Under the pieces are notes generated by a model. The model was not told the origin of the DNA. It saw nothing but the letters and a program-made list of their open reading frames with translations, and made no database searches. The translations under genes and the position numbers were made by a program. DNA of 32,000 bases. Origin: Mechercharimyces sp. CAU 1602 (GTDB taxonomy: Bacteria; Bacillota; Bacilli; Thermoactinomycetales; JANTPT01). The stretch lies in contig NZ_JANTPT010000001.1 in the NCBI RefSeq assembly GCF_024753565.1, forward strand, positions 1,659,336-1,691,335, given 5' to 3'. Of this stretch, positions 31 through 19,680 are shown in pieces (positions within the stretch are counted from its first letter, which is position 1; each line of letters begins with the position of its first letter).

Positions 31-1350
31 TTGACGCAACCACTGTTCGATACATGGAGCTGTTCTCAGAGACAGTCGATCAAAATTTCAGTCGGTAAAA
101 AAACCTTGATTGCCCGTGTAATTCATCTACCCAGTAAGGAACACGCTGTCTATATCCATCCCACCCTCGCTCAACAACTCGCCCTCCCCCCTATTAAAGA
201 ACTGCGGGTTCATTACAGTGATCGACACCTTCGCTTTGGACCGGTTATCGCCATTCTCACCACGGGGTATACAGGCTCCTTTGATAAGCCATTTGGTAAT
301 CGCTCTAATTTATTTCGTAGTTTTTTGCTTGCCTCTAGACAAGAGCATCCCATATTCTATGTTTTTTCTCCTGAAATGGTGGACTGGAATACGAACACGA
401 CTACTGGCTGGTTTTATTATAAAAAAAGTAACGGTGACTATGGATGGAGTCGGCGCACAGCTCCCCTCCCTGATGTCATCTATGAGCGTATACCCAACCG
501 TAAAGCAGAATCTTTACCCCAAGTTCAATCTTGCCTAAAACGTCTGAAGGAATTAGGAGCCTGCCCAGTATTTAATCAAGGTTTCTTCAGCAAGTGGTCC
601 ATTCATGAAATCCTATATCAGCAATCAAAAACATCATACTTCATTCCCGAAACCTATATCTCACCCACTATCGAACTGGTTCGCTATATGGTGGATAAAC
701 ACAAGATGGTTTATCTCAAGCCTAATGGCGGGAGTTTAGGATTAGGGATATTACGCATTACGAAAAACAAGAAAAATGGTTATTTTTGTCGCTTTCGTAC
801 TGGTGACCGTAATATTCTACGTAAATTTTCTTCTATTAACAACCTGATTGAACATCATTTCGGACATCAAAAGCAACGCTTTAATCAATATCTTATTCAA
901 CAGGGAATTCGTCTAGTCAGATATCATGATCGCCCTGTCGATTTCCGCGTACACATGAACAAAGATCGACAAGGGAGATGGCAAGTAGTTGGTATTGGTT
1001 CTAAAGTGGCTGGCTTTGGTAGTGTCACTACTCACACGCGAACAGGTGGATCAATAGTCTCTACAGAGCAATTATTGACAGACATTTTCCAATCCCAAGC
1101 CGCATTAGCAGAAAAGGCAATTAAGCAAGCCTCCATCATTATTGCAGAGACGATGGAACAATACATTGATGGTCCCATCGGTGAACTAGGACTTGATATC
1201 GGAATTGACTGTAATCACCATGTATGGCTTTTTGAGGTGAACGCAAAGCCAGGTCGTCATATTTTCGTTCACCCCAGTTTAAAAGCGGCTGGATTTCAGT
1301 CCGCACGTATGATTACCGAATATAGTCTCAAACTAACCAATTTTGTGTAA
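31..1350 (+). CDS. YheC/YheD-family ATP-grasp protein (spore-coat-associated family), paralog 1. It may be 5'-partial, because the reading frame stays open to the left window edge.
   Basis: 439-aa ORF. It shares motif blocks with the next ORF: GPVIAILT, LPDVIYERIP, FNQGFFSKW, VYLKPNGGSLGLGILRI, QQGIRLVRYHDRPVDFR, GIGSKVAG...THTRTGGS and ELGLDIGID...VWLFEVNAKPG, the last being an ATP-grasp C-terminal Mg/ATP region. The TTG at 31 has no obvious RBS, and there is no in-frame stop in nt 1-30. Confidence 0.8.
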   Translation: MTQPLFDTWSCSQRQSIKISVGKKTLIARVIHLPSKEHAVYIHPTLAQQLALPPIKELRVHYSDRHLRFGPVIAILTTGYTGSFDKPFGNRSNLFRSFLLASRQEHPIFYVFSPEMVDWNTNTTTGWFYYKKSNGDYGWSRRTAPLPDVIYERIPNRKAESLPQVQSCLKRLKELGACPVFNQGFFSKWSIHEILYQQSKTSYFIPETYISPTIELVRYMVDKHKMVYLKPNGGSLGLGILRITKNKKNGYFCRFRTGDRNILRKFSSINNLIEHHFGHQKQRFNQYLIQQGIRLVRYHDRPVDFRVHMNKDRQGRWQVVGIGSKVAGFGSVTTHTRTGGSIVSTEQLLTDIFQSQAALAEKAIKQASIIIAETMEQYIDGPIGELGLDIGIDCNHHVWLFEVNAKPGRHIFVHPSLKAAGFQSARMITEYSLKLTNFV

Positions 1351-1362
1351 TGGAGGGAACCT

Positions 1363-2679
1363 ATGATGCTTCAAACTGGATGGCTGGCGTTGAATCCCAG
1401 AGAACAGTCGCCTGTATTCATCCCTCATAAACAGCAAAAAATTACCTTGCCGTCTACACTGCCGGCACAGATAGGTAAAAAGATGAAAGCGATGCTACCT
1501 GTTTCACACTCGACCGTGCATGCAACACCCTCTCCTCGTTATATGCCTACTCGCATCATTCAAGTCGCTCCTGATCAATACCGTGTCGGCCCATTTGTCG
1601 CAATCTTAACATCAGCCGATCGCCGCACTCCTTTTCGCGGCAACTCACTAAACTTTGCTGATTTAATCCGAATGGGACGGAAGATGGGGATTACCGTATT
1701 CGTATTAACACCCGAAGGCATTAAACCCTCTCGCTCTACCGTGAAAGGTTATCTTCTCGATCCTCGCTTCAAAACAAACAAATGGGTGTTAGGTACCCTT
1801 CCCATGCCAGATGTTATTTACAACCGAATTCCCTACCGCTCCTTTGAGGAGAGACCCTTGGAGCAACAGGCTCTCAAAATGTTAAACGAGCTCAACATCC
1901 CTATTTTCAATCCCTCGTTTTTTAACAAATGGACGTTGTACAAACTACTTCGGCGCTCCAGCTCGCTTACATCCCTACTACCCGACACGACACCTTGGAG
2001 TCATATCGATCGCTGTAAACAACTGATAAAAAAGCATCCCGTCCTTTACCTAAAGCCTGTTGATGGTAAAGCGGGCATCGGCATGATTCGCATCAATAAA
2101 CAAAATGATGCTTATGATGTTGTTTATCAAACAAAGTCGAGCCAAAAAAAATACCAGGGAATTTCCAATAATACTCTCTTTTCATTTCTAAATAAACTCA
2201 TACAGTCACACGAATATATCTTACAACAAGGAATTAGCCTTGCTCTATACCGCGATCGCCCTTTCGACCTCCGACTATTAGCCCAAAAAGATAATAATGG
2301 AAAATGGGGCGTTACTGGCATCGGTACTCGATTGGCTGGGAAGGAAGCGATTTCTACTCATGTGCCTCGAGGCGGATCTATTGAAGATACCACCGTGGTA
2401 TTAAGTGAAGTATTTGGTACCCATCATCCTTATATTTATAAAAAAGCAGAAAAGATAGGGATAAAAATCGCCAAGCATATCGAAGTACAGTCAGGACAAT
2501 CTTTAGGGGAAATGTCAATGGATATGGGTGTAGATAAAGAGGGAGAGATTTGGTTCTTTGAGGCTAATTCGAAACCAATGAAATTTGACGAACCACAAAT
2601 CCGTCAACTATCATTACAACGCATTCTCCAATACTCTCTCTATATTAGTGGCTATCAGCCGCAAGGGGAGGGGGAGTAG
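1363..2679 (+). CDS. YheC/YheD-family ATP-grasp protein, paralog 2
   Basis: 438-aa ORF. A GGAGGGA RBS lies in the 12-nt gap after the upstream stop. The motif set matches paralog 1: GPFVAILT, MPDVIYNRIP, FNPSFFNKW, LYLKPVDGKAGIGMIRI, QQGISLALYRDRPFDLR, GIGTRLAG...THVPRGGS and EMSMDMGVD...IWFFEANSKP. Confidence 0.85.
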   Translation: MMLQTGWLALNPREQSPVFIPHKQQKITLPSTLPAQIGKKMKAMLPVSHSTVHATPSPRYMPTRIIQVAPDQYRVGPFVAILTSADRRTPFRGNSLNFADLIRMGRKMGITVFVLTPEGIKPSRSTVKGYLLDPRFKTNKWVLGTLPMPDVIYNRIPYRSFEERPLEQQALKMLNELNIPIFNPSFFNKWTLYKLLRRSSSLTSLLPDTTPWSHIDRCKQLIKKHPVLYLKPVDGKAGIGMIRINKQNDAYDVVYQTKSSQKKYQGISNNTLFSFLNKLIQSHEYILQQGISLALYRDRPFDLRLLAQKDNNGKWGVTGIGTRLAGKEAISTHVPRGGSIEDTTVVLSEVFGTHHPYIYKKAEKIGIKIAKHIEVQSGQSLGEMSMDMGVDKEGEIWFFEANSKPMKFDEPQIRQLSLQRILQYSLYISGYQPQGEGE

Positions 2680-3165
2680 ATGGAGTTCCAAACTCTCACA
2701 TCTGAACAGTTTCAACGTATGTGTCCATACCTGATTCATTTTTTCAAAAACCAAGGTGAGAAGCGCATCACTTATCAATCCTTGCGCTGGCTACACAACC
2801 AACAAAATACTGGATATGAGTTAGGAACAATCGCCACTGTTGCCCTCGCTCAAAAAAGGCTAGCTGGCGCTCTCGTCCTGGGTAGATATGGAATAGAAGA
2901 GTCCTTGCTAGCCGTACACTCCACCTATCGTAATCAAGAAATTGCAGAGACCCTCCTGTTACAAGCGAAAGAGGAGTTAGGGAAATTATATGGTCGAATT
3001 GAGTGTGACAATTCCGCTAGCTTAAAAGCTTGCTTCAACGCCGGTTTAATGGCCTTTCGACTGATCCAGGGAACCACAGGAAAACCTACTTTATGGCTTG
3101 CAGGGGGCGACTGGAGCGAAGAAGAACTGGATCATTATCTAGATGAGAACTCCCTTCCGCTTTAA
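2680..3165 (+). CDS. Small GNAT-fold-like protein; a putative acyl/aminoacyl transferase, possibly with a degenerate CoA-binding loop
   Basis: 161-aa ORF. Its ATG directly abuts the upstream TAG (2677-2679), which suggests translational coupling. VHSTYRNQEIAETLLLQA resembles GNAT motif A (R-x-x-G-x-G/A) with E replacing the first Gly. IECDNSASLKACFNAGL resembles motif B (N..A..lY...GF). The assignment rests on motifs only. Confidence 0.5.
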   Translation: MEFQTLTSEQFQRMCPYLIHFFKNQGEKRITYQSLRWLHNQQNTGYELGTIATVALAQKRLAGALVLGRYGIEESLLAVHSTYRNQEIAETLLLQAKEELGKLYGRIECDNSASLKACFNAGLMAFRLIQGTTGKPTLWLAGGDWSEEELDHYLDENSLPL

Positions 3166-3167
3166 AG

Positions 3168-3222
3168 GGAGAACAAAGGACCCTGCCTGAATATGAGCGG
3201 GGTTCTTTGTCTATTTATTCAC
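3168..3222 (+). terminator. Putative rho-independent terminator after the ATP-grasp/GNAT operon
   Basis: Imperfect hairpin AGAACAAAGGACCCTGC ... GCGGGGTTCTTTGTCT with one bulge and two mismatches, followed by a T-rich TATTTATT tract. Confidence 0.4.
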
Positions 3223-3345
3223 CTGCACACTGTTCTTATAGTAAATATGAAAAAGGGTTGTACCTTTTTTTACTTTACGTCTACATATTCGTCCATCATG
3301 AATATAGGTATAAGTAGATACGAATTAGAAAGGGGCTGAGACATT

Positions 3346-6300
3346 TTGGCACAAAACAAAAAAAGACCAACGAAGCGCTCTGTAAAAGGGAAAAAAAATA
3401 TTACGCAGGAAGATGAACGTATACTTAAGCAAATTGTCCATCATCACGGTGACCCTGCACCGGTAAAACAGGCAACCATCTGGCTCTCCGATAACGGGGG
3501 CGCAACGAATACGAGAAAAAAAGGATCTGTGGAATCAAATCATCAATTACACCAACCAGATAACTATTCCCTTCAACAAGGACCCATTCGAGATGAAGAA
3601 GAATTCTCTTCCTCATCAATACAAGCGCAATCAGATGATGTTAGCTTTATCTCATCCATGATTGATCCTCATTCGCAAAGTGAGCCTGGTGCCCCACCCC
3701 CCTCCTATATTCGGGACTTTGCCGGATCTACAGAATGGGGTAACACCGAACTCGATGAGGACGAGGACTCAAACGACGAGGTCATCCATACTACAGACCA
3801 TACCTCCGAAACAGCCAATACGGGGAAGAAATCCTTTCTTCATACTGAATCTGTGGATGCTTCTCATATAAAAGCCGGAGCGATCCATGACCATCACATA
3901 TTACCACGCGCTGTTCAGGCAAAACATATCCAAAATCGCAGTATTGCAGGAAGACACTTATCTGAAAGCATCATTAGACGAATTACTACCCCCTATATCG
4001 CTCCGGCCTCTTTAAGTGGTGAACATCTGATGGAAGGGGTGATCTCTACTTCTCATCTTCAAAATGAAGCCATAACAGGCGGCAAAATCTCTGCCCATGC
4101 CATTCAATCGCAGCACCTAGAACATGGAGCGGTTGTAAATCATCATGTTCGTGATCACTCCATCAGTGGAAATAAATTATCACCCAACTCCATCACTACG
4201 GATAACATTGCTCCTCAAGCCATCCACAGCAAACATATCTCCTCTCGATCGATCGAGGGAGTCCACTTTAAAAAAGGAGCCATTCAAAGTGAGCATATAT
4301 TATCCAACGCAATTGCATCTCAGCACATCAATCCTAAGTCTATTGAAGCGAAGCATATTCTACCTCAGGCGATCCAAGAAGACCAACTAGCTAATGAGTC
4401 TGTAACTAGTAAAAAGCTGGCCCCCAAGTCGATTCAAGCCAAACATTTAACACAAGACTCTGTCAAAAAGAATCACATCAGTGCTCTTAGCATTACAACT
4501 GATCATCTGGACAGTCAAGCCGTTGTCGGTAAGAAAATAGCACCTCATGCGATTCAATCTCGACATATCGCTTCCCAGTCGATCACCAGCGACCATCTCT
4601 TTAACGACTCGATCTCAGGTGAAAAGATAGCTTCACATTCGATTGGAGAACAACACCTAATGAATAAAACTGTAAATAGTCAGCATCTGCAAGATGAATC
4701 CGTTCACACTCATCATCTAGGGAAGCAAGTGATCGCCAGCGATCACTTGGGAGAACAAATTGTAAATAGTGAACATGTGAATAATGAAGCAATCCAAGGC
4801 GAACACCTCGCCAAAGAAGCGATTTCAGGTGAACATCTCCAAAAAGAGGCCATCTCAGGAAAAAAAATAGCCCCACAATCGATTGGAGAACAACACCTCC
4901 TAGAGAAAACCGTCAACAGCCTTCATTTGCAAGACGAATCTATTCAAACACACCATCTGGGAAAGCAAGTGATCGCCAGCGATCACTTGGGAGAACAAAT
5001 TGTAAATAGTGAACATGTGAATAACGAAGCAATCCAAGGTAAACACCTTGCTAAAGAAGCGATTGCAAGTGAGCACCTTCAAAAAGGAGTGATCACTAGC
5101 GACCATATTGATGATGAGTCGATCGTTTCTACACACTTAAGTGCTCTTTCTGTTTCAGGAAAGCACTTAACTGAACGTTCTGTCGACTCAGATCATATTA
5201 AAGCAGGGGCTATAGATGGATCACACATCGCAAAAGAGAGTATTTCACCCAAACACTTGACTAAGGGAACGATCACCAGCGATCAATTAGCAAATGAAGC
5301 AGTCCATTCTAACCACCTCTCCCGCCAATCCGTCACTAGCCAACATATCGGATCCAACACCATTTCACCACACCATCTCTGTGCACAAACCATTCAGCAC
5401 AAACACCTCGACAATGGAGCGGTTACGGGAAAGAATTTAGCTGAACGGGCCGTCCAATCTACTCATTTGAGTGACCAATCTGTCAATAGTCAGCACATTG
5501 CTCCCGCTTCGATCCAAAGTGAACACCTCGCCCTCGGAAGCATTGCCTCCGAACACTTGAGTGATGACATTATGCAAAATTTTACTCCCCCATCAATTAC
5601 ACAAGATCACATTGCTAAAGATTCGATTACATCTGAACAGATTGCTCCGGGAGTTATTGATCAGACTCATATCCAAAAAAACGCTATCCATGGGGATCAT
5701 ATTGATGAGTTTTCCATTCAATCCCACCATCTTGCGATCCAATCAATCTTAGATGAGCACCTATCTGATGGATCTATTGGCGATACCCATATAAAACCCC
5801 AGTCCATTCAAAGTGAGCATCTAGCAGACTTCTCTGTTCACTCCCAACATTTAGCGATCGATTCAGTAACCAATGAGCAATTAGCGGACAATTCCGTGGA
5901 TCATATCCACCTTAAGCACCAATCTGTGCAGAGTAGACACATAGTGGATGAGGCCATTGATTCTACTCATCTCAAACCGACCATCATTCAAGGAAAGCAT
6001 ATAAAGAAACAAACACTCCAGGCACAACATCTCGCCCCTGACTCTATAACGGGTGAGCACCTAAAAGATGAATCTATCAAAACAAACCATATGCAAGCAG
6101 GTTCTATTCAAGGGCAGCATTTGGCTCACCGCTCTATTGCAACAGAGCACCTACGTGATCATACCGTAATTAGCGCACATCTTGGAGAAAAAGTTATCCT
6201 TGCCAAGCATCTAGCTCCTAGTATTATCGATTCTGATCACATTAGAAAACATAGTGTGCAAACCCAACACCTAACCGAACAAAGTATCGGTTCTGATCAC

Positions 6301-8997
6301 ATCAAAGAAGATGCCATCCAGCAACACCATTACGCCGCACACTCCATCAATCAAAAGCATCTTCAGCCCAATTCCATCTCCACCGAACATTTGAGTTCAC
6401 AAACCGTGCAGGCGAAACATTTAGCACCCTCTACTATTCACAACAAGCATCTTACTACCGCTGCCGTAGAAAGTAAACATATCGCTGACCAATCCATCCA
6501 GACGAAGCATTTAACAAAAGCGGCAGTACAAAGTGAGCATATTGCAAAGCAAGCCATCGGGTATGAACAATTACAAGAAAATATCGTGCACAGTGAAAAT
6601 ATTGCCGATCACTCCATTCTTACGCCTCACCTTACCCACCATGTAATCGCAGCCCAACATCTCGCACCACAGGCAATTCATTCTACGCACCTACAAACAG
6701 AAGCCATACAAAACGAACATATCGCCAAGCAGGCTATCCAGGCTCCGCACTTGGGCAAACATGTCATTTCAGATGAACACATCGCTCCCTATGCTATCAG
6801 CAATGAGCATTTGCAAGAAAATATAGTACACAGCAAAAACATCGCAGCTAAATCCATAGACACCAAACATCTCTCAAATGATATCATCACAACAGATCAT
6901 CTCACCGATCGCGCCATCAGCCACGAACAAATACAACAGGATGCTGTACATGGTGAACATATCGCCCCGAATTCCATTCATACAAAGCACCTCACCAGTC
7001 AAGCCATTACTGCCGACCACATCGCCGATCAATCCATCGGGCAAGCGCAATTGCAAGAAGATGCCGTGCAGGGGGAGCATATTGCTAATCTATCGATTCA
7101 AGCAAGACATCTCTCAAATGAAGCCATTACGACTGATCATATTGCACCCGCCGCCATTGCTTCGCCTCATCTTCAACCCGAAAGTGTCAGCAGTCAACAC
7201 TTACAGGCACAAACAGTTGATACAACACACCTTAAAGGAAATATCATCCAAAGCGAGCACCTTACACAACAATCCATTCAACATAAACACCTTCAATCCG
7301 ATACCGTTCACAGCGACAATATCGCTGATGAAGCAATCTCAGCCCGACACCTATCCAGAAATCTCATTTCAACAGAGCATATTGCACCCGCTGCGATATC
7401 CACCACCCATCTCCAGCCAGAAAGTGTGGGTAATCAACACTTACAAGCGGAAACCATCTCCACTTCTCACCTACAAGAAGACATCATTTACAGCCAACAT
7501 CTTACGCCAGAAGCAGTCGCCCATCGTCACCTACAACAACAAGCCGTTCAGAGTGAAAATATCGCCGATGATTCCATTTACACCAATCACCTCACCAATA
7601 AAGCTGTAACGGGTGAAAACATCGCCGATGGTTCCATCTACACCAATCACCTAACTAAAAAAGCTGTAACGGGTGAAAACATCGCTGATCAAGCAATTCA
7701 TCATTCACATCTTCAAATAAACAGTATCAGCGGGGAACATATACAAAGTGATTCCATCTCTGCTGCCCATCTTTCAAATGGGGTCATTACCAACCGTCAT
7801 CTCAGCAATGAAGCGATTCAAGGAGAGCATATCTCTCCTGATACAATCAGCAACATTCACCTCAAAATTGGCTCCATCATGCGAGATCATATTGCAGATC
7901 AGGCAGTCAGCACACGCCATATCGAAGCTGAAGCCATTAACAGAGCCCACATCGCACCACAAAGTATCCAAGCCAAGCATCTTACTACCAACAGTATTGA
8001 GAAAGATCATATACAACCGAATAGTATCGACAGTGAGCAGCTTAATCATGACGCAGTAACGGGCGAACACCTCAGCAAACAATCGATTCAACCGGAACAC
8101 CTTTCACCACGATCAATCCACAGCGAACATCTACAGGAACAAATCATTGACGGTAAACATTTGAAAAAAGGGAGTATCCAGTCTGAGCATTTGAATGATT
8201 GTACCCTTACCAGTAACCACATCGCCCCCGAATCCATTGCCACTGATCACCTACAGCAAGATGTGGTACATGGATTTCATATCGCTCATAACACAATTGA
8301 TGAAACCCATCTAGCTGAGCATGCTATTACCGAAACACAAATTGCTCCTGAAGCGATCACAGCGAAGCATCTTCAACCCTCATCTGTCCAGTCTAACCAT
8401 ATATCTCAAGGAAGCGTTACCTCTACTCATCTCGATAAAAATACGATTCATGCTGAGCATCTCTCACCCGATTCTATTGTGAGCACACACATTCAAGCTG
8501 AAGCCATTCAACAAAAGCATATCGCTTCACAAGCGATCTCGGCAGAACATATAACTAACGGCTCCATCGGCAACAAACATATAGCACCCCACTCCATCGG
8601 ACTGGATAAACTTAATTTTCATCCCAATATCATCTTCCATTCACCCTTTTCAGCACAATGTGGAACACACCATTTCCAAATTCAAGAGAATGAAACCAAC
8701 ACCCTCATTCATATTGATTTGGAGCAACACTTCACTGCCAGCGACTATGTTGTTGTCGCGATGACTGACAACAATGCTACTCAGGTTCACTTGGTAGATC
8801 GTCAACAAAAACGCTTTACTGTAAATGTACAACAATGCGCTCATAGTGAGGAAACAGATTGTCAAGGCTCCATCTCTTGGATCGCTATGGGAGCTTCTCC
8901 CGCTCATCAACATATTCGTCGCTCACAAAAAGATCTAAGCGATCTCTCTAGTATCCCTACCCCGTTTCAAAGCGACGGCAAGTGGACACATCCATAA
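3346..8997 (+). CDS. Giant (1,883 aa) histidine-rich decapeptide-repeat protein with a C-terminal WIAMG-containing ('WIAG-tail'-like) domain and no signal peptide
   Basis: Single uninterrupted 5,652-nt ORF. The TTG start lies 9 nt after GAAAGGGG. Hairpin terminators sit on both sides (3168-3222 and 9024-9061). The N-terminal ~170 aa are basic then acidic low-complexity sequence. About 157 decapeptide units follow. The last ~128 aa are non-repetitive and contain SISWIAMGAS. Confidence 0.85.
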   Translation: MAQNKKRPTKRSVKGKKNITQEDERILKQIVHHHGDPAPVKQATIWLSDNGGATNTRKKGSVESNHQLHQPDNYSLQQGPIRDEEEFSSSSIQAQSDDVSFISSMIDPHSQSEPGAPPPSYIRDFAGSTEWGNTELDEDEDSNDEVIHTTDHTSETANTGKKSFLHTESVDASHIKAGAIHDHHILPRAVQAKHIQNRSIAGRHLSESIIRRITTPYIAPASLSGEHLMEGVISTSHLQNEAITGGKISAHAIQSQHLEHGAVVNHHVRDHSISGNKLSPNSITTDNIAPQAIHSKHISSRSIEGVHFKKGAIQSEHILSNAIASQHINPKSIEAKHILPQAIQEDQLANESVTSKKLAPKSIQAKHLTQDSVKKNHISALSITTDHLDSQAVVGKKIAPHAIQSRHIASQSITSDHLFNDSISGEKIASHSIGEQHLMNKTVNSQHLQDESVHTHHLGKQVIASDHLGEQIVNSEHVNNEAIQGEHLAKEAISGEHLQKEAISGKKIAPQSIGEQHLLEKTVNSLHLQDESIQTHHLGKQVIASDHLGEQIVNSEHVNNEAIQGKHLAKEAIASEHLQKGVITSDHIDDESIVSTHLSALSVSGKHLTERSVDSDHIKAGAIDGSHIAKESISPKHLTKGTITSDQLANEAVHSNHLSRQSVTSQHIGSNTISPHHLCAQTIQHKHLDNGAVTGKNLAERAVQSTHLSDQSVNSQHIAPASIQSEHLALGSIASEHLSDDIMQNFTPPSITQDHIAKDSITSEQIAPGVIDQTHIQKNAIHGDHIDEFSIQSHHLAIQSILDEHLSDGSIGDTHIKPQSIQSEHLADFSVHSQHLAIDSVTNEQLADNSVDHIHLKHQSVQSRHIVDEAIDSTHLKPTIIQGKHIKKQTLQAQHLAPDSITGEHLKDESIKTNHMQAGSIQGQHLAHRSIATEHLRDHTVISAHLGEKVILAKHLAPSIIDSDHIRKHSVQTQHLTEQSIGSDHIKEDAIQQHHYAAHSINQKHLQPNSISTEHLSSQTVQAKHLAPSTIHNKHLTTAAVESKHIADQSIQTKHLTKAAVQSEHIAKQAIGYEQLQENIVHSENIADHSILTPHLTHHVIAAQHLAPQAIHSTHLQTEAIQNEHIAKQAIQAPHLGKHVISDEHIAPYAISNEHLQENIVHSKNIAAKSIDTKHLSNDIITTDHLTDRAISHEQIQQDAVHGEHIAPNSIHTKHLTSQAITADHIADQSIGQAQLQEDAVQGEHIANLSIQARHLSNEAITTDHIAPAAIASPHLQPESVSSQHLQAQTVDTTHLKGNIIQSEHLTQQSIQHKHLQSDTVHSDNIADEAISARHLSRNLISTEHIAPAAISTTHLQPESVGNQHLQAETISTSHLQEDIIYSQHLTPEAVAHRHLQQQAVQSENIADDSIYTNHLTNKAVTGENIADGSIYTNHLTKKAVTGENIADQAIHHSHLQINSISGEHIQSDSISAAHLSNGVITNRHLSNEAIQGEHISPDTISNIHLKIGSIMRDHIADQAVSTRHIEAEAINRAHIAPQSIQAKHLTTNSIEKDHIQPNSIDSEQLNHDAVTGEHLSKQSIQPEHLSPRSIHSEHLQEQIIDGKHLKKGSIQSEHLNDCTLTSNHIAPESIATDHLQQDVVHGFHIAHNTIDETHLAEHAITETQIAPEAITAKHLQPSSVQSNHISQGSVTSTHLDKNTIHAEHLSPDSIVSTHIQAEAIQQKHIASQAISAEHITNGSIGNKHIAPHSIGLDKLNFHPNIIFHSPFSAQCGTHHFQIQENETNTLIHIDLEQHFTASDYVVVAMTDNNATQVHLVDRQQKRFTVNVQQCAHSEETDCQGSISWIAMGASPAHQHIRRSQKDLSDLSSIPTPFQSDGKWTHP
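4611..5090 (+). repeat. Near-identical 240-nt (80-aa, 8-unit) tandem duplication inside the giant ORF
   Basis: 4641-4658 (gattggagaacaacacct) recurs at 4881-4898. The stretch ggaagcaagtgatcgccagcgatcacttgggagaacaaattgtaaatagtgaacatgtgaataa[tc]gaagcaatccaagg occurs at ~4721-4799 and again at ~4961-5039. At protein level, ISGEKIASHSIGEQHL...EAISGEHLQKEA matches ISGKKIAPQSIGEQHL...EAIASEHLQKG. Confidence 0.9.
6841..7560 (+). repeat. Three diverged copies of a 240-nt (80-aa) higher-order repeat
   Basis: Units starting at 6841, 7081 and 7321 begin IAAKSIDTKHLSNDIITTDH, IANLSIQARHLSNEAITTDH and IADEAISARHLSRNLISTEH. Copies 2 and 3 also share HIAPAAI(A/S)..HLQPESV..QHLQA(Q/E)T. Nucleotide matches are seen at 7141 vs 7381. 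Confidence 0.7.
7561..7680 (+). repeat. 60-nt (20-aa) tandem duplication
   Basis: 7561 atcgccgatgattccatttacaccaatcacctcaccaataaagctgtaacgggtgaaaac versus 7621 atcgccgatggttccatctacaccaatcacctaactaaaaaagctgtaacgggtgaaaac. At protein level, IADDSIYTNHLTNKAVTGEN / IADGSIYTNHLTKKAVTGEN. Confidence 0.9.
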
Positions 8998-9023: not shown

Positions 9024-9061
9024 AGCCACATAAAAGCGGGAATTCCCGCTTTTATGTGGCT
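9024..9061. terminator. Bidirectional rho-independent terminator between the convergent giant ORF (+) and spoVR (-)
   Basis: Perfect 17-bp stem AGCCACATAAAAGCGGG / CCCGCTTTTATGTGGCT with a 4-nt AATT loop. An A-run lies upstream and ACTTTTCT downstream. Confidence 0.85.
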
Positions 9062-9077: not shown

Positions 9078-10496
9078 TTACAAGAAACGACGGTTGCATT
9101 TATTACCATTAAAGCTAAATAACACACTCCGTCCTTCAATCGTCGTTTCAATGTGTACCGTGCGCCCCCATAATTCAAATAGATGGGGTAGCGTCTTCTC
9201 CAAGTATTTCACATCTAGTTCGGTCCCCTCATACTGGTGTTTCAGATAAAGCTCTCGATTTTGCATATAATCACCCTCTTGTACCACCAAGTACGGATGT
9301 CCTCCGTTGATGCGGCTCGCCACCAACTGATCACGCACTTTTTCCCAATTTTTATCCTCTATGGTCCAATCATTACCTCTACGTCCGAAGAGATAAAGAT
9401 CAAGCTCATCTACCAGCTCCTTTGTCAAATAGTTACGGATGAAGGAAGTATCCGAATCCACCTCACGAATTTCAAAAAGTTTCTCCCGCCCACTACCTGG
9501 TTTTCGTCCATAACGCTCCTGTTCTTCTTCTGATGGCTCATCCCACCTGCGCTCAATATCCTCTAGCATTTTTAGCCCAAGGTAATACGGATTGATCGAT
9601 GTGCTAGACGGTTGGATAACAGATGCGTTAAGCTTTGCAAATTCCACTGTCTCCTCTTCTGTCAAATTCATTTCGCGTAAAATACGAATATGCCAATACG
9701 AAGCCCATCCCTCATTCATCACTTTTGTTTCCATCTGTGGCCAAAAGTACAGCATCTCTTCCCGTATCATCGTTAGTACATCTTGTTGCCACTCTTCCAA
9801 CACCTGACTATGGTGCATAATATACAAAAGCAAATCTTTCTGTGGTTCCATCTTACTCTTTTTGCGCTCTACCCTTGTCTCTTCATTCGCACGATCATCC
9901 AATCTCCACAATGCGTCATATGGAGCTGGGGCAGAAGGACGATTAGCTGCCCCCTCTTCTTTCTTATCCTCTTGCTCCCAGTCAGAATTCTGTCTCATTA
10001 AGCTTGGGTCAATATGTTCTTGCACCGCTAACGCATGATCTAAAAACTCTTCTACCTCTTGTTTCCCATACCGTATTTCATAAGAACGAATTCGCTCTGC
10101 ACTTGCCGCCATACTTTCCACCATATCACGCGATGTATGGGAGAACTGAACGTTATTTTTAAAGAAGTCACAGTGTGCCAATACATGGGCAACAATTAGC
10201 TTATTTTGAATCAGGCTGTTTCCTTCCAACAAAAAAGCGTAGCACGGATTAGAGTTGATCACCAGCTCATAAATACGGCTTAAATTCAGATCATACTGAA
10301 GTTTCATTCTATAAAATGACTTTCCAAAACTCCAGTGCGAAAATCGGGTCGGCATTCCATATGCACCAAAAGTATATATAATGTCTGCAGGGCAAATCTC
10401 ATAACGCATGGGGTAGAAATCCAGTTTAAAACCACGTGCGATTTCAGTTATTTCATCAATTGCTCGCTCCAACCCTTTAAGATCTGCTGATGTCAC
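9078..10496 (-). CDS. spoVR: Stage V sporulation protein R (SpoVR family)
   Basis: Family-typical sequence: [60 protein letters not shown] place the start at the GTG at 10496 (VTSADLKG...) because AAAGGGGAG lies 8 nt upstream. The ORF-track start at 10526 would add 10 aa with no RBS. The resulting 472 aa is close to the B. subtilis SpoVR length as I recall it. Confidence 0.9.
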
Positions 10497-10644
10497 GCTT
10501 GCAACTCCCCTTTCCCAGTGGGTCACACAGACTCACGGTGATATTTATCATTATACGTAGAGAGCAACGGAACGTTTCTAGACATCTGCTTTTTAATCCC
10601 ACCATTATACCGCTACAGTTACCTTAAAGCGGATCTTTTCATGC

Positions 10645-10680: not shown

Positions 10681-11301
10681 TTATAAGGGGCGTAATACGG
10701 CCCTTACTGGACTCCCATCCGCTTCTTTAAGCGGTAGTGGCAATGCAATCAGTTCATACTTGCCCGCATCTATTTGATCCAATACCGCCCCCTCTAAAAT
10801 ATGTATACCGGCCGCATGCAAAGCATGATGTGCACGCAATTCCTTACTATCTAGTGGATCGACCGAAGGCACGTCCAAACCTAATAGACGCACGCCCTTG
10901 TCCGCTAGATAAGGAGCAATCTCCGGCTCCATATAAGTGATCGACTCAGGAAAAGAAGAATAATCCTTCCAAGCGTCCGTACGAATAAAGAGGCGCTCTA
11001 CACCTGTTAAATCATAAGTTAATAACTCTTGAACTCCAATTGACGTACGCTCAGGCAAGTGTAGGACCAGCACTTCACCCACATACAAGCTGAGATCTAA
11101 ATCTAAAATCTTTGCGCCCTCTTCATCAAAGTGAAAAGGGGCGTCCACATGTGTACCTGTATGCGTACTAAGATTTATTTGCCCTACATTGACCGAACCG
11201 CTTTCCTCCTTTGTCCATGTCAAATCATAAGAGAAAGGAGTATCTCCTGGCCATACGGGCATCCCTTCCTGGAGCGGCTGAGAAATATCGATCCACTTCA
11301 T
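10681..11301 (-). CDS. kynB: Kynurenine formamidase (arylformamidase, cyclase family)
   Basis: 206 aa. The [10 protein letters not shown]...MPVWPGD...STHTGTHVDAPFHF metal-binding signature is typical of bacterial KynB. Its ATG overlaps the kynU stop (TAATG). Confidence 0.85.
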   Translation of the reverse strand: MKWIDISQPLQEGMPVWPGDTPFSYDLTWTKEESGSVNVGQINLSTHTGTHVDAPFHFDEEGAKILDLDLSLYVGEVLVLHLPERTSIGVQELLTYDLTGVERLFIRTDAWKDYSSFPESITYMEPEIAPYLADKGVRLLGLDVPSVDPLDSKELRAHHALHAAGIHILEGAVLDQIDAGKYELIALPLPLKEADGSPVRAVLRPL

Positions 11302-12584
11302 TATGCCACCACTTCACGTTTTTTTTCGTATTTCTCATATCGTTTTTCAACCATAATACGCTTCAATACTTGCACTGTCTGCCACACCTCAAGATACGAG
11401 GTGTAGAGTGCGATTGGAGCTAATCGTATAATATTAGGTTCGCGGTAATCTGGGATGATGCCTTCTTCTTTTAATGCTTTACAAATCCGTATCGCCTCTT
11501 CATGCACCAGTGCAATATGCCCACCACGCCGGTGATCCTCTGTCGGGTTCATAAATGAAAACCCTGTATTCCCCATCTCTGCTTGAATCAAATCCATCAT
11601 ATATCGTGTCATATGCAAAGACTTCTCTCTAATCTGTTCGATCCCGGCTTCTTCAAAAATCTCCAAAGAACCATATAGTGGGGCCATGCTTAATACATGC
11701 GGTGTCCCGATCTGAAATGCTCCTGCCGTTTGCGCAGGCTCCAACTGATGTTTCATATCAAATTGCTTCTCTTTATCCGAACTAAACCATCCGGCTAGAG
11801 CAGGCGTCGCCCCTAAATGCTTCTCGTGAACATACAATCCTGCTACCCCGCCAGGTCCACTATTTACATATTTATAGTGACACCAGACCGCAAAGTCAAC
11901 ATCCCATCCATTAAAAGCATGGGGAATAGCTCCAATCGAGTGACAAGCATCAAACCCGATGACGATTCCATTCTTCTTTGCTTCAGAGGTGAGTCGCTGA
12001 ATATCTAACAATTGCCCACTGCGATACAACACTGTAGGAAGAAGGATAAGGGCTACTTCATCTGTCATCATCTCAATGATGTCTTCTTCTTCTATCATCT
12101 TTCCATCCCGACTCAGAACTTGTAACAGGTGTTCATCTGGATCAAATCCATGGATGCGCAATTGGCTTTGCAGTGCATAAATATCTGAAGGGAACGTCAA
12201 CGTGTCTGCTAAAATCTTGGTTCGCTTCCCTTCCGGTCGATAAAAGGTAGCCACCAATTGATGAATATTGATCGTCGTGGAACCTGTTACAATCACTTCA
12301 TCTGGTAACGCTCCAATCAGAGGAGCTACTTTTGCCCCCAAGGTTTCTGCCATCTCATACCATGGTCGCTTCCCTTTCATCCACCCATCTATGCCAAACT
12401 GGCGCCAATCCGCCATCACGTCTAATAGCGTTTGTTCTGCTCGCTTAGACATCAAACCAAGTGAATTGCCATCCAGATAGATGGTTCCTTCTGCCTGATA
12501 AAACTCTGTCTTATAACGTGCCAGTTCATCTTCTTGATCTAATTCCACAGCATACTGGCGGCTCAAATTATCCAAGTTGGTCAC
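11301..12584 (-). CDS. kynU: Kynureninase (PLP-dependent)
   Basis: Aminotransferase class V-like sequence with kynureninase-typical blocks: [38 protein letters not shown] and GWFS....F. I place the start at the GTG at 12584 (VTNLDN...), 7 nt after AAAGGAAG. The ORF-track start at 12635 would overlap the kynA 3' end by 25 nt. Confidence 0.88.
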
Positions 12585-12610
12585 TTGCACACTTCCTTTC
12601 TCTCTTCGTT

Positions 12611-13450
12611 CTACAATTTCGTCCTTAGCTCCCACAATTCTGGAAACATACGTTGATCAATAACTTGCTTTAAATAGGAAACACCTGAAGATCCTCCCGT
12701 ACCCATCTTCATCCCAATCACTCGTTCCACTGTTTTCATATGACGGAAACGCCATTGTTGAAAACGATCTTCAAGATCAACTAGTTTCTCTGCTAAATCA
12801 TATAAGTCCCAGTACTTCTCAACATCGCGATACACCTGTAACCAAGCTTCCTCCACACTAGGGTGAGCAGCATAAGGCTCCTTCCAATCCCTATTCAACA
12901 CAGCGGAATCAACACTTATCCCTCTTTGTGCAAGTGCTTGGATCGACACATCGTAGATGCTAGGTTCGTGTAACACCTGCTCTAGTCGTTTATACCGTGG
13001 TTGATCATGTTGGTAAATTTCTAAGATGCGCTCATTTTTCTTTCCGAGGAGGAACTCAATCTCACGATTTTGGAACGATTGAAAACCGGATGATTTCCCA
13101 AGGGCATCACGAAATTCCATGTATTCGGAAGGTGTAAGTGTCGACAATACGTCCCATGATTGGATTAACTGAAGTTGACTTTTTGAAACCCGTGAAAGCA
13201 TTTTAAAAGAAGGCTCTAATTCACCTCTACTAATACATGCTTTTGCCTCGGATAGCTCATGAATCATCAGTTTCATCCATAGCTCACTTGCTTGATGAAT
13301 AATGATAAATAGCATCTCATCATGATGGCCTGACAATCGCCGTTGGCTGGATAAGATCTGATCTAACTGTAGATATTCTCCGTAACTCATTTCCTCTTTA
13401 AAATCGGTGTGCATCCCTTTCTCCCACACTTGTCCTTGCTTCTTTTCCAT
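12611..13450 (-). CDS. kynA: Tryptophan 2,3-dioxygenase
   Basis: [15 protein letters not shown]...[19 protein letters not shown] and [11 protein letters not shown] are TDO hallmarks. I place the start at the ATG at 13450 (MEKKQGQ...), 8 nt after GGAGG. The result is 279 aa. Confidence 0.9.
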
Positions 13451-13702
13451 TGTAGGACCTCCATACTCATAATCCATTCTTCTCTTTTAGGATACCGAAT
13501 GCAAAGCAGATAATCACCCCCATATTTATACTCGTCTACAATCCATACTATTCAAACTTATCCACTTGCTTTCATATGACACCCATATCTTAAATGAATG
13601 GCTTTATCCTGTAATACCCGCATAAGCCTAGACACAATATGAAGGAAAGGAGTAATCTATATTTAAGCATATGCAATCCACAGCGGTTTAAAGGAGTGGA
13701 AT

Positions 13703-14578: not shown

Positions 14579-16573
14579 TTATTCACCGGAAGCATTGCTT
14601 TTCCCACGAGGACCACGAGCCCCCCGAGGACCACGTGGTCCGGTAGGACCGGTCATCCCTGTCGCTCCTGTGGCTCCTCGTGGTGCAGGTCTTCCTAGCT
14701 TTAACACAAAAGCATCTGCGAACTGACTCTTATTTTCTGTCTGGAAAGCACCTGGTGTCGTAGGGAAATCCGTAGATAGTGTAAACCCAACCACAGCCAC
14801 CTGTTGATTTTTCTGAACAGCAATATCAATGCCAAAATCATTAGCATCACCACCATAGTAGGTGGAATAAGAAATACCTGTCCCGGCAAAACTCATCTGC
14901 GTAATAAAAGCATCGGCTGAGCCCCGCAAGCGATCTTGGAAGGCATCTGAGGTGAGTGGAAAATTAGCAGAGCGTGTCACTCCTGTTACCCACGCCCCCT
15001 CGAAAGCATCGATGGCAACCCCGGATCCCAGCTCCTCACCGCTTCCTCCCAGGTAGGTAGAGTAAACCTGCGCTGTCCCTGATCGATTCAATTTGCATAC
15101 ATACGCGGAGTTTACTCCTGGAAAGAGAGTCTGAAATGCACCACTGGTTACAGGGAAGTTCGTTGAAGACGTAGAGCCTACAATATATGCTTGATCGCCA
15201 CCATCTATAGCGATAGCACTAGCATCTTCAGCATCGCTTCCTCCCAAGTAAGTAGAGTACACCAGCCCTGAGCCATCTGGATTTAGTCTGGTTACAAAAG
15301 CATTTTGGGACCCTCGCAACTGCGTCTGAAATGCTCCTGACGTAACAGGGAAGTTCGTCGACCTGGATATCCCACTTACGAAGGCATTACCTTCGTTGTT
15401 AACAGCAATCGCTTCTCCTTGGTCCGATTGAGCTCCACCTAAAAATGTGGAATATCGTAACGCGCTCCCTGTTGCGTTTAATTTCGTTGCATATGCAGCT
15501 CCTCCACCTGGAAGTATCGTCTGAAATGCTCCTGAGGTAACCGGAAAATTAGGAGAGGTCGCAATCCCTGTAATATATGAATTCCCTTCGGCGTCAAGAG
15601 CGATATCTTCGCACGAATCAGGAAATTCTCCACCTAAGTAAGTGGAAAAAACAAGGGATGTCCCCTGACTATTAAGACGCGTAATAAAAGCACTCGTAAA
15701 ACCACCCACTGTCGTTTGAAATGCTCCCGACGTTATGGGGAAGTCTATCGAATCTGTAATACCTACTGCAACCGCTTCATCTCCATCAACGGCGATGCCT
15801 CTCCCTGTAGTGATGCAAATACCGCCCAAATACGTAGAGTATACAAGTGAACTACCCGTCTGATTTAGTTTACTAACAAAAGCACTTGACACACCACGAT
15901 TTACCGTTTGAAATGCCCCAGTAGTGACTGGGAAATCATCCGAATCGGTTACGCCCGTTACATAAGCATTGCCGCTGGTATCCACAGCGATCCCCATTCC
16001 GCCTGCTTGTAAATCAGAACCATCAAATCCACTTCCGCCTAGAAGTGTAGAGTAAAAAATAACGGGGTCGATCACAAGTGAGTAACGAGGGTCGTATTCA
16101 CCTACCTCAAAGCCAAGAGCGCCCCCCTCACTGACAACAAAACCTGCTTCAACCTCCACCTTCTTCCCTTCGATCCATTGGTAACTGTACGGTTTTTCTT
16201 CTTTTACTAACACCTGCTGTGTATGAAGAAACAAGTGACCGTCCTTATCCACTTCCATCTTGGTCGCACCCTCATACGTAAGTCGTACAGAACTTATCTC
16301 TGCTCCAGGACTTACAATGACATCGTACTTCAGCTGATCGCCTTGACGATAAAAAACCATATCCACACCAGGAACTATCTGCTCATAAACAGCTCGTTTT
16401 CCCTCATCTACTAACTTTACTCCTTTTCCCTTCGGCAACATCAGCCGCAGAAAAGGGGGGTAGCGAAGCTCCTCCTGCTGCACTCCTGACTGAATTAGTG
16501 AAAAGTTGACCTCGTTATGAACAAAATCTACTTTAACGTCGTTAACGTCCATCTCTTTGTTCGTAGTCTTCAT
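14579..16573 (-). CDS. SBBP-type seven-blade beta-propeller repeat protein with a C-terminal collagen-like (G-X-Y) tail (paralog A, 664 aa)
   Basis: The ATG at 16573 lies 9 nt after AAGGAG. Seven repeats of ~55-65 aa have the form A[VI]D..GNAY[VI]TG.T.S..FP[VI]T.GAFQT...G...AF[VI].[KR]LN..G..L.YSTYLGG. The N-terminal ~170 aa contain GVDMVFYRQGDQLKYDVIVSPGA, which resembles the domain commonly preceding SBBP propellers. The C-terminus reads GATGATGMTGPTGPRGPRGARGPRGKS. Confidence 0.85.
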   Translation of the reverse strand: MKTTNKEMDVNDVKVDFVHNEVNFSLIQSGVQQEELRYPPFLRLMLPKGKGVKLVDEGKRAVYEQIVPGVDMVFYRQGDQLKYDVIVSPGAEISSVRLTYEGATKMEVDKDGHLFLHTQQVLVKEEKPYSYQWIEGKKVEVEAGFVVSEGGALGFEVGEYDPRYSLVIDPVIFYSTLLGGSGFDGSDLQAGGMGIAVDTSGNAYVTGVTDSDDFPVTTGAFQTVNRGVSSAFVSKLNQTGSSLVYSTYLGGICITTGRGIAVDGDEAVAVGITDSIDFPITSGAFQTTVGGFTSAFITRLNSQGTSLVFSTYLGGEFPDSCEDIALDAEGNSYITGIATSPNFPVTSGAFQTILPGGGAAYATKLNATGSALRYSTFLGGAQSDQGEAIAVNNEGNAFVSGISRSTNFPVTSGAFQTQLRGSQNAFVTRLNPDGSGLVYSTYLGGSDAEDASAIAIDGGDQAYIVGSTSSTNFPVTSGAFQTLFPGVNSAYVCKLNRSGTAQVYSTYLGGSGEELGSGVAIDAFEGAWVTGVTRSANFPLTSDAFQDRLRGSADAFITQMSFAGTGISYSTYYGGDANDFGIDIAVQKNQQVAVVGFTLSTDFPTTPGAFQTENKSQFADAFVLKLGRPAPRGATGATGMTGPTGPRGPRGARGPRGKSNASGE
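14597..14677 (-). repeat. Collagen-like G-X-Y coding tract (9 triplets) at the 3' end of paralog A
   Basis: Decoded codon by codon from the minus strand: GAT GAT GMT GPT GPR GPR GAR GPR GKS, followed by NASGE and the stop. Confidence 0.85.
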
Positions 16574-18869: not shown

Positions 18870-19643
18870 CTACAATATCTCAATTTTATATAACTCTTCG
18901 CTAACTACACGCTCATCGGCATATGTTCGTTCGATAAATATAATTGCGTGCTGCTTCGTATCCACCCACAGCACCGTAGACGAGCGGGTCCCATAAGCTG
19001 GTAAACGTATAAAAAGAGGAGATAGCCCCCGTTCCACTTCCAATCCGACTCCCGTATGGGGAAGCTCATGATCTTCTGCTTGTTCACTTGAGGTAAGTAG
19101 TTGAAACAGAGCATCACAATCCGGTTGATCAGCACTTGCTGAAGGCATAAGTTCCTCTAGTTTCGCTCTTCCTTTTTCCACTTTGGGCCACGGTGTATTA
19201 AGAAAAGAATTACTTATTCCATGTATCCCTGGAGCGACGGATAACAACTCATTATGGCGATTAGAATAATACCACAAGTCATGCTGATTCCCCACTAAGA
19301 GATTAAACCCTTGATATCTATCCCTCACCGTTTGAATTTGAGCTAAATAAGATGGCGCGTCCAATGAACCACGCAAAAAATTTGCCACCAAATCTCCTCG
19401 TGATGCCTTCCCATTACGTGATTGATGAGGATCTCGATAATTGGTTACAGCTGCAAATTGCCCTTCCCGATTTATCCCTAACCAAGTGCCCCCCTTCACC
19501 AGATCACGTCCTGCTAACACATGGGGCGCATCTTTCCAAAAAGCTGCTTTCGCCGTAGGACGTTCAGTAAATTCATCACGATTAGAAGCCACAATGAGCG
19601 GAAACCGAGCATGCATCTGATAGGCGAACAAAATCGTACACAT
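18870..19643 (-). CDS. NRDE-family protein (DUF833 / TANGO2-like)
   Basis: MCTILFAY...LIVASNRDEF...GGTWLG...FAAVTNYR is the family signature, including the NRDE motif. I place the start at the ATG at 19643, preceded by GGAAAGGGGGA. The ORF-track start at 19790 would overlap the upstream gene by ~110 nt. Confidence 0.85.
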   Translation of the reverse strand: MCTILFAYQMHARFPLIVASNRDEFTERPTAKAAFWKDAPHVLAGRDLVKGGTWLGINREGQFAAVTNYRDPHQSRNGKASRGDLVANFLRGSLDAPSYLAQIQTVRDRYQGFNLLVGNQHDLWYYSNRHNELLSVAPGIHGISNSFLNTPWPKVEKGRAKLEELMPSASADQPDCDALFQLLTSSEQAEDHELPHTGVGLEVERGLSPLFIRLPAYGTRSSTVLWVDTKQHAIIFIERTYADERVVSEELYKIEIL

Positions 19644-19680
19644 CGATTTGTTCCCCCTTTCCTCTCTTGTTCTATGACAC

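Follow-up and report, generated by a model that had tools for sequence, protein, structure and literature searches.

What sort of protein results when one short motif, repeated well over a hundred times, takes up most of a very long reading frame, and what could a bacterium use it for? The question is raised by the longest open reading frame (ORF) in a stretch of 32,000 nucleotides from Mechercharimyces sp. CAU 1602 (assembly GCF_024753565.1, contig NZ_JANTPT010000001.1, positions 1,659,336 to 1,691,335), which we call the window. The gene, termed here the fibre gene, encodes 1,883 residues made up of a non-repeat N-terminal region, a shaft of decapeptide repeats and a C-terminal domain of the WIAG-tail family. 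We propose that its product is a phage-fibre-like trimeric fibre of a spore-forming bacterium, with a lectin-like tip and plausibly located on the spore surface. For this statement taken as a whole we put the probability at about one half; our confidence is higher for the fibre and for its phage homology, and lower for the spore location.

A preliminary description, made from the DNA letters alone, had presented the protein as a candidate single-chain beta-solenoid with ladders of stacked histidines. Its observation of the repeat is confirmed and its interpretation is partly supported. It missed that the repeat is that of phage tail-fibre shafts and that the tail is, as predicted, an H-type-lectin-like knob. 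We present the protein as a member of the uncharacterised WIAG-tail family and not as a categorically new fold.

The decapeptide repeat

Register tracking of the motif [S/A/T]-[I/V]-x-x-x-H-[L/I]-x-x-x identifies 156 units in three blocks without insertions or deletions (indels), together 1,560 residues or 83% of the protein, in close agreement with the approximately 157 repeats and 83% first described. Position 2 is occupied by Ile, Val or Leu and position 7 by Leu, Ile, Val, Phe, Met or Tyr (almost always an aliphatic residue) in all 156 units, and position 1 is Ser, Ala or Thr in 135 of them. The histidine of position 6, which had been called invariant, is only frequent (132 of 156 units, 85%). 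Turn-like residues are found at position 4 (Ser, Gly or Thr) and at positions 9-10 (Pro, Asp, Asn or Gly). Over the 156 units the commonest residues are Glu (39), Lys (28), Asp (21) and Gln (15) at position 5, and Gln (33), Glu (26), Asp (18), Gly (17) and Asn (16) at position 10. Histidine accounts for 10.7% of the protein compared with 3.1% in five neighbouring genes.

The autocorrelation of residue identity reaches 0.26 at lags of 10, 30 and 50 residues and 0.29 at lags of 20 and 40; it drops to 0.11 at lag 5 and to about 0.045 at other lags. The 10-residue period is therefore overwhelming, and the 20-residue super-period, which had been called clear, is real but weak. It is seen in block 3, where alternate units favour H-L-Q/T/S or H-I-A-P/D.

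The mean nucleotide identity between units is 44%, and it reaches at least 90% in only 2 of 12,090 unit pairs. The histidine codons of position 6 are mixed (78 CAT and 54 CAC). Tandem Repeats Finder identifies just two recent internal duplications: one in block 2 (4612-5086; two copies of 240 nucleotides, 84% identical, equivalent to eight units) and one in block 3 (7553-7689; 2.3 copies of 60 nucleotides, 90% identical). Such low identity, together with mixed codons and so few, small duplications, argues that the repeats are old and not a recent amplification, and that the pattern has been kept by selection at the protein level. Both duplication lengths are multiples of the 60-nucleotide double unit, hinting that the shaft grows in steps of 20 residues.

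Relatives of the repeat among phage tail fibres

The strongest relatives of the shaft are found in phages. The 'tail fiber protein' family phrog_892 matches the repeats with E=2.2e-167 (560 bits, 23 stretches). Further matches are to five other PHROGs of the tail-fibre or tail category and to one annotated as tail tip protein Tal; the tail-fibre matches are located in repeat blocks 2 and 3. A tblastn search with a 300-residue slice retrieved 44 phage records at 20-27% identity, in which the annotated genes are those of minor tail, tail fiber or tail proteins. Among them is Arthrobacter phage Mimi, whose minor tail gene (gp94) measures 12.8 kb. Relatives in the protein databases contain indel-free decapeptide runs of up to 160 pentads, fused to PF06605 (prophage tail endopeptidase) or to PA14, GLEYA or discoidin (F5/8 type C) domains. 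From these matches we take the shaft repeats to be homologous to those of phage tail-fibre shafts. A scan of genome contigs with the whole fibre protein gave no relatives.

One relative, the phage tail protein P0009, carries canonical A-x-I-x-x pentapeptides directly after its decapeptide run (residues 657-717), and this segment matches designed Rfr-fold proteins with E=3e-8. Its sequence indicates that a single tail protein can combine decapeptides with true pentapeptide repeats. A match to the short tail fibre of phage SU10 (7Z4B) was set aside: it falls in another, gp37-like region of a relative and is uninformative concerning the decapeptide.

The C-terminal WIAG-tail domain

The preliminary description had applied the label 'WIAG-tail' to proteins of this kind, and the label is correct. 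NCBIfam model NF012201 ('WIAG-tail domain') matches the C-terminus with 58.1 bits against a cut-off of 33 (E=7.1e-16) over profile positions 2-79 of 80. The motifs Y-V-V-V-A-M-T and W-I-A-x-G align with 14 relatives, and decapeptide repeats directly precede the tail in all relatives with enough sequence. An exhaustive phmmer search of 1.8 billion representatives with the tail gave eight matches, and a profile built from these recovered ten database proteins, four of them with a source name: Planifilum fulgidum, Paenibacillus amylolyticus and a Clostridioides difficile fragment, all named 'WIAG-tail domain', and Paenibacillus uliginis, annotated 'hypothetical protein'. The C. difficile fragment (on a 432-nucleotide contig) was not accepted as a true member; it is near-identical to Paenibacillus and is probably a contamination. 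A word-based homologue search with the tail alone gave two candidates, neither at E<=1e-3.

We modelled residues 1690-1862 with AlphaFold2 (AF2) from 15 sequences. The tail is predicted as a six-strand beta-sandwich with a predicted local distance difference test score (pLDDT) of about 95 over residues ~1768-1850. Foldseek against the PDB matches this model with probability 1.0 to SLL-2 and to the Helix pomatia and H. aspersa agglutinins, which are H-type lectins; superposition on 2CE6, 2CCV, 2CGY, 3WMP and 4Q56 gives target-normalised template modelling (TM) scores of 0.51-0.65 and root mean square deviations of 2.8-4.7 A. The PDB matches also include the C-terminal domains of the tailspikes of Pam1, LKA1 gp49, phi297 and AP22 and the lectin domains of the R1 and R2 pyocin fibres. 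In BFVD the tail matches 31 models at E<=1e-3, the majority of them tail-fibre proteins or proteins with an 'H-type lectin domain'. The same lectin-like fibre domains have been described as trimeric, saccharide-facing tips (PMC6116203). The model therefore points to an H-type-lectin-like knob such as is found at the end of homotrimeric phage fibres.

We found no published function or structure for the WIAG-tail family; the sole paper found to use the term labels a giant-virus 'tail fiber'.

Histidine and lysine at position 6

In this protein 82-85% of units have His and 4% have Lys at position 6; the corresponding values in the orthologues are 47-60% and 20-29%. Among more distant relatives it is 72-88% His in the P0001 group, mixed Lys/His in P0009, and 95% Lys with 0% His in the phage-type relative P0011. 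Comparison of these sequences indicates that position 6 is a His/Lys-interchangeable site across the family, of which the present histidine array is a lineage-specific extreme. Lysine cannot replace a metal ligand. Free exchange of the two residues thus argues for an exposed, polar or cationic site and against a conserved metal ligand. The buried HxH-Fe sites of T4 gp37 and of pyocin fibres (PMC6116203) provide a contrast. The suggestion that the histidines form a metal-binding ladder is correspondingly weakened as a statement about the family, but this particular protein, with its 132 histidines at position 6, may nevertheless respond to metals or to pH.

The fold of the shaft

For the shaft, AF2 was supplied with a gap-free alignment of 21 in-register slices (non-overlapping slices of the protein together with slices of homologues). 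This first run gave a pLDDT of 61 with one six-residue strand (positions 2-7) per unit, and Foldseek found no match to the model below E=1, so that the model lends no support to the single-chain quadrilateral solenoid with 20 residues per coil. In the tail run, the seven units preceding the tail are irregular (pLDDT 41-70) with three-residue helical turns. The two runs give incompatible secondary structures for the repeats and, both being of low confidence, suggest that the shaft does not fold as a monomer.

Charge covariation was analysed in 1,070 units from this protein and its relatives. Opposite-charge pairing is enriched between adjacent units, for position 9 of one unit with position 5 of the next (z=5.3) and for position 5 with position 5 of the next (z=3.0), and nothing comparable is seen at lag 2 (20 residues). 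The pairing at lag 1 would result from a structure in which consecutive units are neighbours in space. An intertwined homotrimer would fit this, while a single-chain helix with 20 residues per coil would be expected to pair at lag 2. We regard the charge pattern as suggestive of such adjacency, not decisive.

Similarity to pentapeptide-repeat proteins is limited. Pfam pentapeptide families give no match at E<=1, and the NCBIfam pentapeptide-repeat models all remain below threshold (HetL, 24 bits against 260; MxKDx, 37.3 against 41). The small-residue rule of these proteins (Ala, Ser, Cys, Thr or Val at i-2) does not hold here: positions 5 and 10 carry mainly charged or long polar residues, and such residues cannot occupy the corners of an Rfr helix. 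The preliminary description had already argued from the polar i-2 position that this is not a canonical pentapeptide-repeat protein, and that conclusion stands, as does its picture of a highly regular fibrous repeat that is neither helical nor a coiled coil. A profile of the repeat nevertheless gives weak Rfr-type matches in the PDB (designed beta1 proteins, E~4e-5; Np275/276, E=0.01) and matches the decapeptide repeats of DotG (E~4e-5). Its best match is chain H of 9EG4 ('orf16' in a capsid entry of Legionella phage LME-1), where residues 93-136 correspond to four decapeptide units (E=1.6e-5). This chain is probably a trimeric head-decoration protein whose distal part is unmodelled. The phi29 head-fibre entry (a helix-turn-helix supercoil and a possible analogue of the shaft) is absent from the repeat-profile matches. 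The PDB sequence and profile searches thus gave no solved structure that covers the decapeptide repeat, its phage version included, as had been stated earlier.

The gene and its flanking signals

The coordinates of the gene, its parts and its immediate neighbours are collected in the table below.

Table. Features of the fibre gene and adjoining genes (coordinates are those of the window)
Feature	Position	Strand	Remarks
YheC/D-like ATP-grasp gene 1	31-1350	+	Upstream of fibre gene
YheC/D-like ATP-grasp gene 2	1363-2679	+	Upstream of fibre gene
Small GNAT-like gene	2680-3165	+	Between ATP-grasp genes and fibre gene
Upstream control region	3298..3335	+	Conserved block ATGAATATAGGTA at 3298-3310, plus ribosome-binding site
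Ribosome-binding site	3327-3335	+	AGAAAGGGG; ends 10 nucleotides before TTG start
Fibre coding sequence, complete	3346..8997	+	TTG start, 1,883 residues; anchor-like region at the N-terminus, shaft of decapeptides, WIAG-tail knob and a short extension at the C-terminus
Non-repeat N-terminal region	3346..3849	+	Residues 1-168
Repeat block 1	3850..3969	+	4 units, residues 169-208
Repeat block 2	4039..5568	+	51 units without indel, residues 232-741
Repeat block 3	5593..8622	+	101 consecutive units without indel, residues 750-1759
WIAG-tail domain	8653..8892	+	Residues 1770-1849; predicted six-strand beta-sandwich, H-type-lectin-like knob
Bidirectional intrinsic terminator	9024..9061	both	17-bp stem; common to fibre gene and convergent spoVR
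spoVR (stage V sporulation protein R)	9078..10526	-	Convergent to fibre gene

The N-terminal region begins with a Lys/Arg-rich segment (MAQNKKRPTKRSVKGKK), followed by an EDERILKQ motif, an acidic low-complexity linker and KSFLHTE directly before the first repeat. The orthologues likewise begin with a basic segment and have an F-[I/L]-[H/Y]-T motif where the shaft is entered. The 168 residues match neither Pfam nor PHROG, and Pfam gives no match at E<=1 to the protein as a whole. No signal peptide or transmembrane helix was found, nor any hydrophobic segment (the maximum Kyte-Doolittle mean over 19 residues is 0.69); Pfam and hydropathy analysis revealed no LPXTG, SLH or other wall-anchoring module.

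A block ATGAATATA(C/G)(C/G)TA about 35 nucleotides 5' of the start codon is kept in three syntenic loci (the present one and those of Kroppenstedtia and Melghirimyces). No sigma-70-like site was reported within 3166-3345. Sigma-E, sigma-K and sigma-G promoters were considered by comparing the upstream region by eye with the B. subtilis consensus, and none gave a convincing fit.

Several ORFs occur in other frames within the fibre gene, at 6878-7609 (+), 7748-8059 (+), 7774-8100 (-), 4601-4876 (-) and 8650-8913 (-). They reach 243 residues, are rich in Pro, Ser and Ile, and in all likelihood arise from the periodic codon pattern and are not genes.

Genomic context and orthologous loci

Kroppenstedtia guangzhouensis and Melghirimyces thermohalophilus have exactly the same order of ATP-grasp, ATP-grasp, GNAT-like, fibre gene and convergent spoVR, and their WIAG-tail repeat ORFs in this slot encode 936 and 1,022 residues, respectively. 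In a genome scan, the nearest relatives of the second ATP-grasp protein are those of Thermoactinomycetaceae (47-53% identity), followed by Paenibacillus. Apart from the fibre gene, the window contains no phage, tail or baseplate gene; its content includes 2-oxoglutarate dehydrogenase, asparagine synthase, an MscS channel and the kynurenine pathway. The guanine-plus-cytosine (GC) content of the fibre gene (0.441) is that of the window (0.438). The lack of phage genes over 32 kb, the matching GC content and the synteny across genera together argue that the fibre gene is chromosomal and vertically kept.

In Paenibacillus the orthologues are located elsewhere than in the Thermoactinomycetaceae slot. 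A YheC/D-type ATP-grasp gene lies no more than ~1.2 kb upstream in five of the six fibre loci, and two of the three Paenibacillus loci have such a gene ~1 kb upstream with glycosyltransferase genes downstream. In the latter two (L002, 12103-19745; L003, 11111-17260), clusters of glycosyltransferase (GT2, GT-D-like) and nucleotidyltransferase genes follow the fibre gene and bring to mind loci for the glycosylation of spore surfaces. In B. subtilis, yheC and yheD are sigma-E regulon genes and are activated by SpoIIID, and YheD is a protein of the basement layer of the coat (PMC517825; PMC7725329).

Leaving aside the C. difficile fragment, the organism-labelled WIAG-tail matches are from Planifilum, Paenibacillus, Kroppenstedtia and Melghirimyces; all members of the family known to date thus come from endospore formers. 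Public assemblies break within genes of this family. That of P. uliginis is interrupted by a gap of 845 N (L001, 9156-10000), and in two long-read Paenibacillus assemblies it is broken into fragments by frameshifts (L002, 5113-10351; L003, 5248-10483). As a result of such breaks the databases hold mostly short 'partial' WIAG-tail proteins, and both the size and the number of these genes are under-reported.

Other features of the window were observed in passing. A complete kynurenine pathway operon (tryptophan 2,3-dioxygenase, kynureninase and kynurenine formamidase-type cyclase; 10681-13477, -) lies directly beyond spoVR. Two adjacent paralogues at 14579-16573 (-) and 16607-18829 (-), of 664 and 740 residues, combine DUF7948 with SBBP beta-propeller repeats; both start in DUF7948 without a long leader, and each closes with a short collagen-like G-x-y tail (for example, GATGATGMTGPTGPRGPRGARGPRG). 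Tails of this collagen-like type are characteristic of spore-surface proteins in Bacillota. Next to the pair lies the gene for a TANGO2-family protein (PF05742, E=1e-74; 18870-19790, -).

Weighing the explanations

Between the two architectures for the shaft, we consider a homotrimeric fibre likely and a single chain wound as a giant beta-solenoid unlikely. The latter could take the form of a pentapeptide-like coil of 20 residues or of a new, narrow coil of 10, with histidine ladders serving as binding sites for Ni, Zn or Cu or as a pH sensor. It would account for the strict five-residue spacing of aliphatic residues, the turn-like residues at positions 4 and 9-10 and the weak 20-residue super-period, and it draws on the weak but consistent profile similarity to Rfr-fold proteins, including the sub-threshold HetL and MxKDx scores. 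In addition, the best neighbours of the first shaft model in Foldseek, although non-significant, are solenoids. Against it stand the missing match to Pfam pentapeptide families, the pLDDT values, the lag of the charge pairing, the charged or long polar residues at i-2, the lack of a structural match below E=1, the membership of the homologous repeats in phage tail fibres and the knob of a trimeric class. A conserved ladder of metal ligands is incompatible with the Lys found at position 6 in many relatives. A different location is envisaged if the protein is a vegetative cell-surface or released adhesin fibre, exported non-classically, serving biofilm or host attachment and unrelated to sporulation. 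This we find somewhat more doubtful still. Relatives with the same shaft do bear PA14, GLEYA and F5/8 type C domains, a lectin-like tip suggests glycan binding, and no sporulation promoter was recognised. Against it count the absence of a signal peptide and of any wall-anchoring module, a family so far confined to endospore formers, and the conserved position between a yheC/D-like operon and spoVR. The strong PHROG matches and the tail-fibre-type knob could also mean that this is a working tail fibre of a prophage, a tailocin or another phage-like particle. We judge that to be very improbable given the metabolic and sporulation genes that surround it in the 32-kb window in place of any other phage, tail or baseplate gene, its unexceptional GC content, the same synteny in different genera and an N-terminus that matches no PHROG.

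The proposed spore-surface trimer has its own difficulties. The trimer itself we infer from the structural relatives of the knob and from the phage homology, and the first AF2 run placed its one strand per unit in a solenoid-like arrangement. The Foldseek E-values of the tail against the PDB are modest (2e-3 to 1e-2), Pfam H_lectin (PF09458) does not match the protein sequence, and tblastn finds no sequence match to the tail in phage genomes. Upstream, a conserved block was found but no recognisable sigma-E or sigma-K promoter. When presence and absence were compared at positions 11.3-15 kb of each of five Thermoactinomycetaceae loci that keep the ATP-grasp/GNAT/spoVR frame (L004-L008), the fibre gene was missing from three (M. 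profundicolus, M. algeriensis and an uncultured Thermoactinomycetaceae metagenome-assembled genome), the two that have it being those of Kroppenstedtia guangzhouensis (L004) and Melghirimyces thermohalophilus (L008). It is also absent beside the ATP-grasp orthologue in ~75 Paenibacillus genomes, and the P. uliginis locus has no ATP-grasp gene nearby. Such patchy presence marks the gene as accessory, and its adjacency to spoVR could be incidental.

Proposed mechanism and significance

We suggest that a fibre of the phage tail-fibre type has become a chromosomal gene in a lineage of endospore-forming Bacillota. Its short basic N-terminal region would be the attachment site. The C-terminal knob would hold three chains together, as knobs do in phage fibres and tailspikes, and the decapeptides would build an intertwined trimeric shaft in which each unit buries its two aliphatic residues and exposes its polar positions, the His/Lys position 6 among them. 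This would produce a rod tens of nanometres long (~75 nm if the rise per unit is 4.8 A) with a lectin-like tip binding a carbohydrate ligand. Assembly may take place in the mother cell, onto the spore surface; this is suggested by the absence of a signal peptide, a family so far seen only in spore formers and the slot between the yheC/yheD-like operon and spoVR. With 132 histidine rungs per chain, the fibre surface could be titratable near neutral pH and able to chelate metals, which we do not see as the conserved role of the site.

If this is correct, a phage tail-fibre module (shaft repeat and lectin-like knob) has been recruited as a chromosomal gene in endospore formers, as a counterpart to the collagen-like nap of BclA that uses another kind of fibre. 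A bolder version, which we hold to be improbable, combines several of these elements: an unsolved trimeric fold common to many phage tail fibres and to a host-domesticated spore fibre, with ~400 surface histidines per trimer forming a pH- and metal-responsive rod of ~75 nm that is attached or cross-linked by the YheC/D ATP-grasp ligases. In that event YheC/D, long-known but functionally undefined coat proteins, would gain a substrate. The link is worth testing in any case, since the conserved yheC/yheD-like neighbourhood makes the fibre a candidate, open to test, for the substrate or partner of enzymes associated with the coat.

The shaft repeat is also of wider interest. It is abundant in phage tail fibres, giant ones included, and the PDB sequence and profile searches gave no solved structure for it; the 101-unit indel-free stretch is an attractive target for crystallography, cryo-electron microscopy or design. 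Whatever its native role, the dense histidine array could be exploited as a natural metal-binding nanofibre.

Comparison with known systems

The closest comparison is with the WIAG-tail orthologues (P. uliginis, P. amylolyticus, Kroppenstedtia and Melghirimyces), which have the same architecture of basic N-terminus, decapeptide shaft and tail. The present member is the longest WIAG-tail protein found, with ~157 units compared with ~70-100 in the orthologues.

The phage shaft repeats (PHROG 892, 28766, 21412 and 7660) have the same form, [S/A][I/V]xxx[K/H][I/L]xxx, in long indel-free runs, but usually with Lys or mixed Lys/His at position 6. The phage proteins also have phage attachment N-termini and are encoded in phage genomes, whereas this gene is chromosomal with conserved non-phage neighbours. 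As in the H-type lectins and the tips of phage receptor-binding proteins (H. pomatia agglutinin, 2CE6/2CCV; SLL-2, 3WMP; R1/R2 pyocin fibres, 6CL5/6CL6; AP22 gp54, 4Y9V; LKA1 gp49, 4RU4; and Pam1, 7EEA), the tail is predicted to be a six-strand beta-sandwich of ~85-100 residues, and the lectin-like domains of phage receptor-binding proteins likewise lie at the extreme C-terminus of the fibre; sequence identity between the tail and these lectins and tips is just 6-20%.

Pentapeptide-repeat proteins (MfpA, Qnr, HetL and Np275/276) resemble the shaft in having a hydrophobic residue at every fifth position and in weak profile similarity (E from 1e-5 to 1e-2). They differ in carrying Ala, Ser or Cys at i-2, where the present protein is charged or polar and has a period of 10 with distinct halves. 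Their Rfr helix was not produced by AF2 for this shaft, which also falls short of all curated thresholds.

As a functional analogue we propose the BclA nap of spores of the Bacillus cereus group. BclA likewise lacks a signal peptide and combines an attachment region at its N-terminus with a long repetitive shaft, whose length varies, and a beta-sandwich knob at its C-terminus; its shaft is trimeric, as this one would be. In BclA, however, the shaft is a collagen-like GXY triple helix and the knob is C1q/TNF-like, with no relationship in sequence or fold to the shaft described here.

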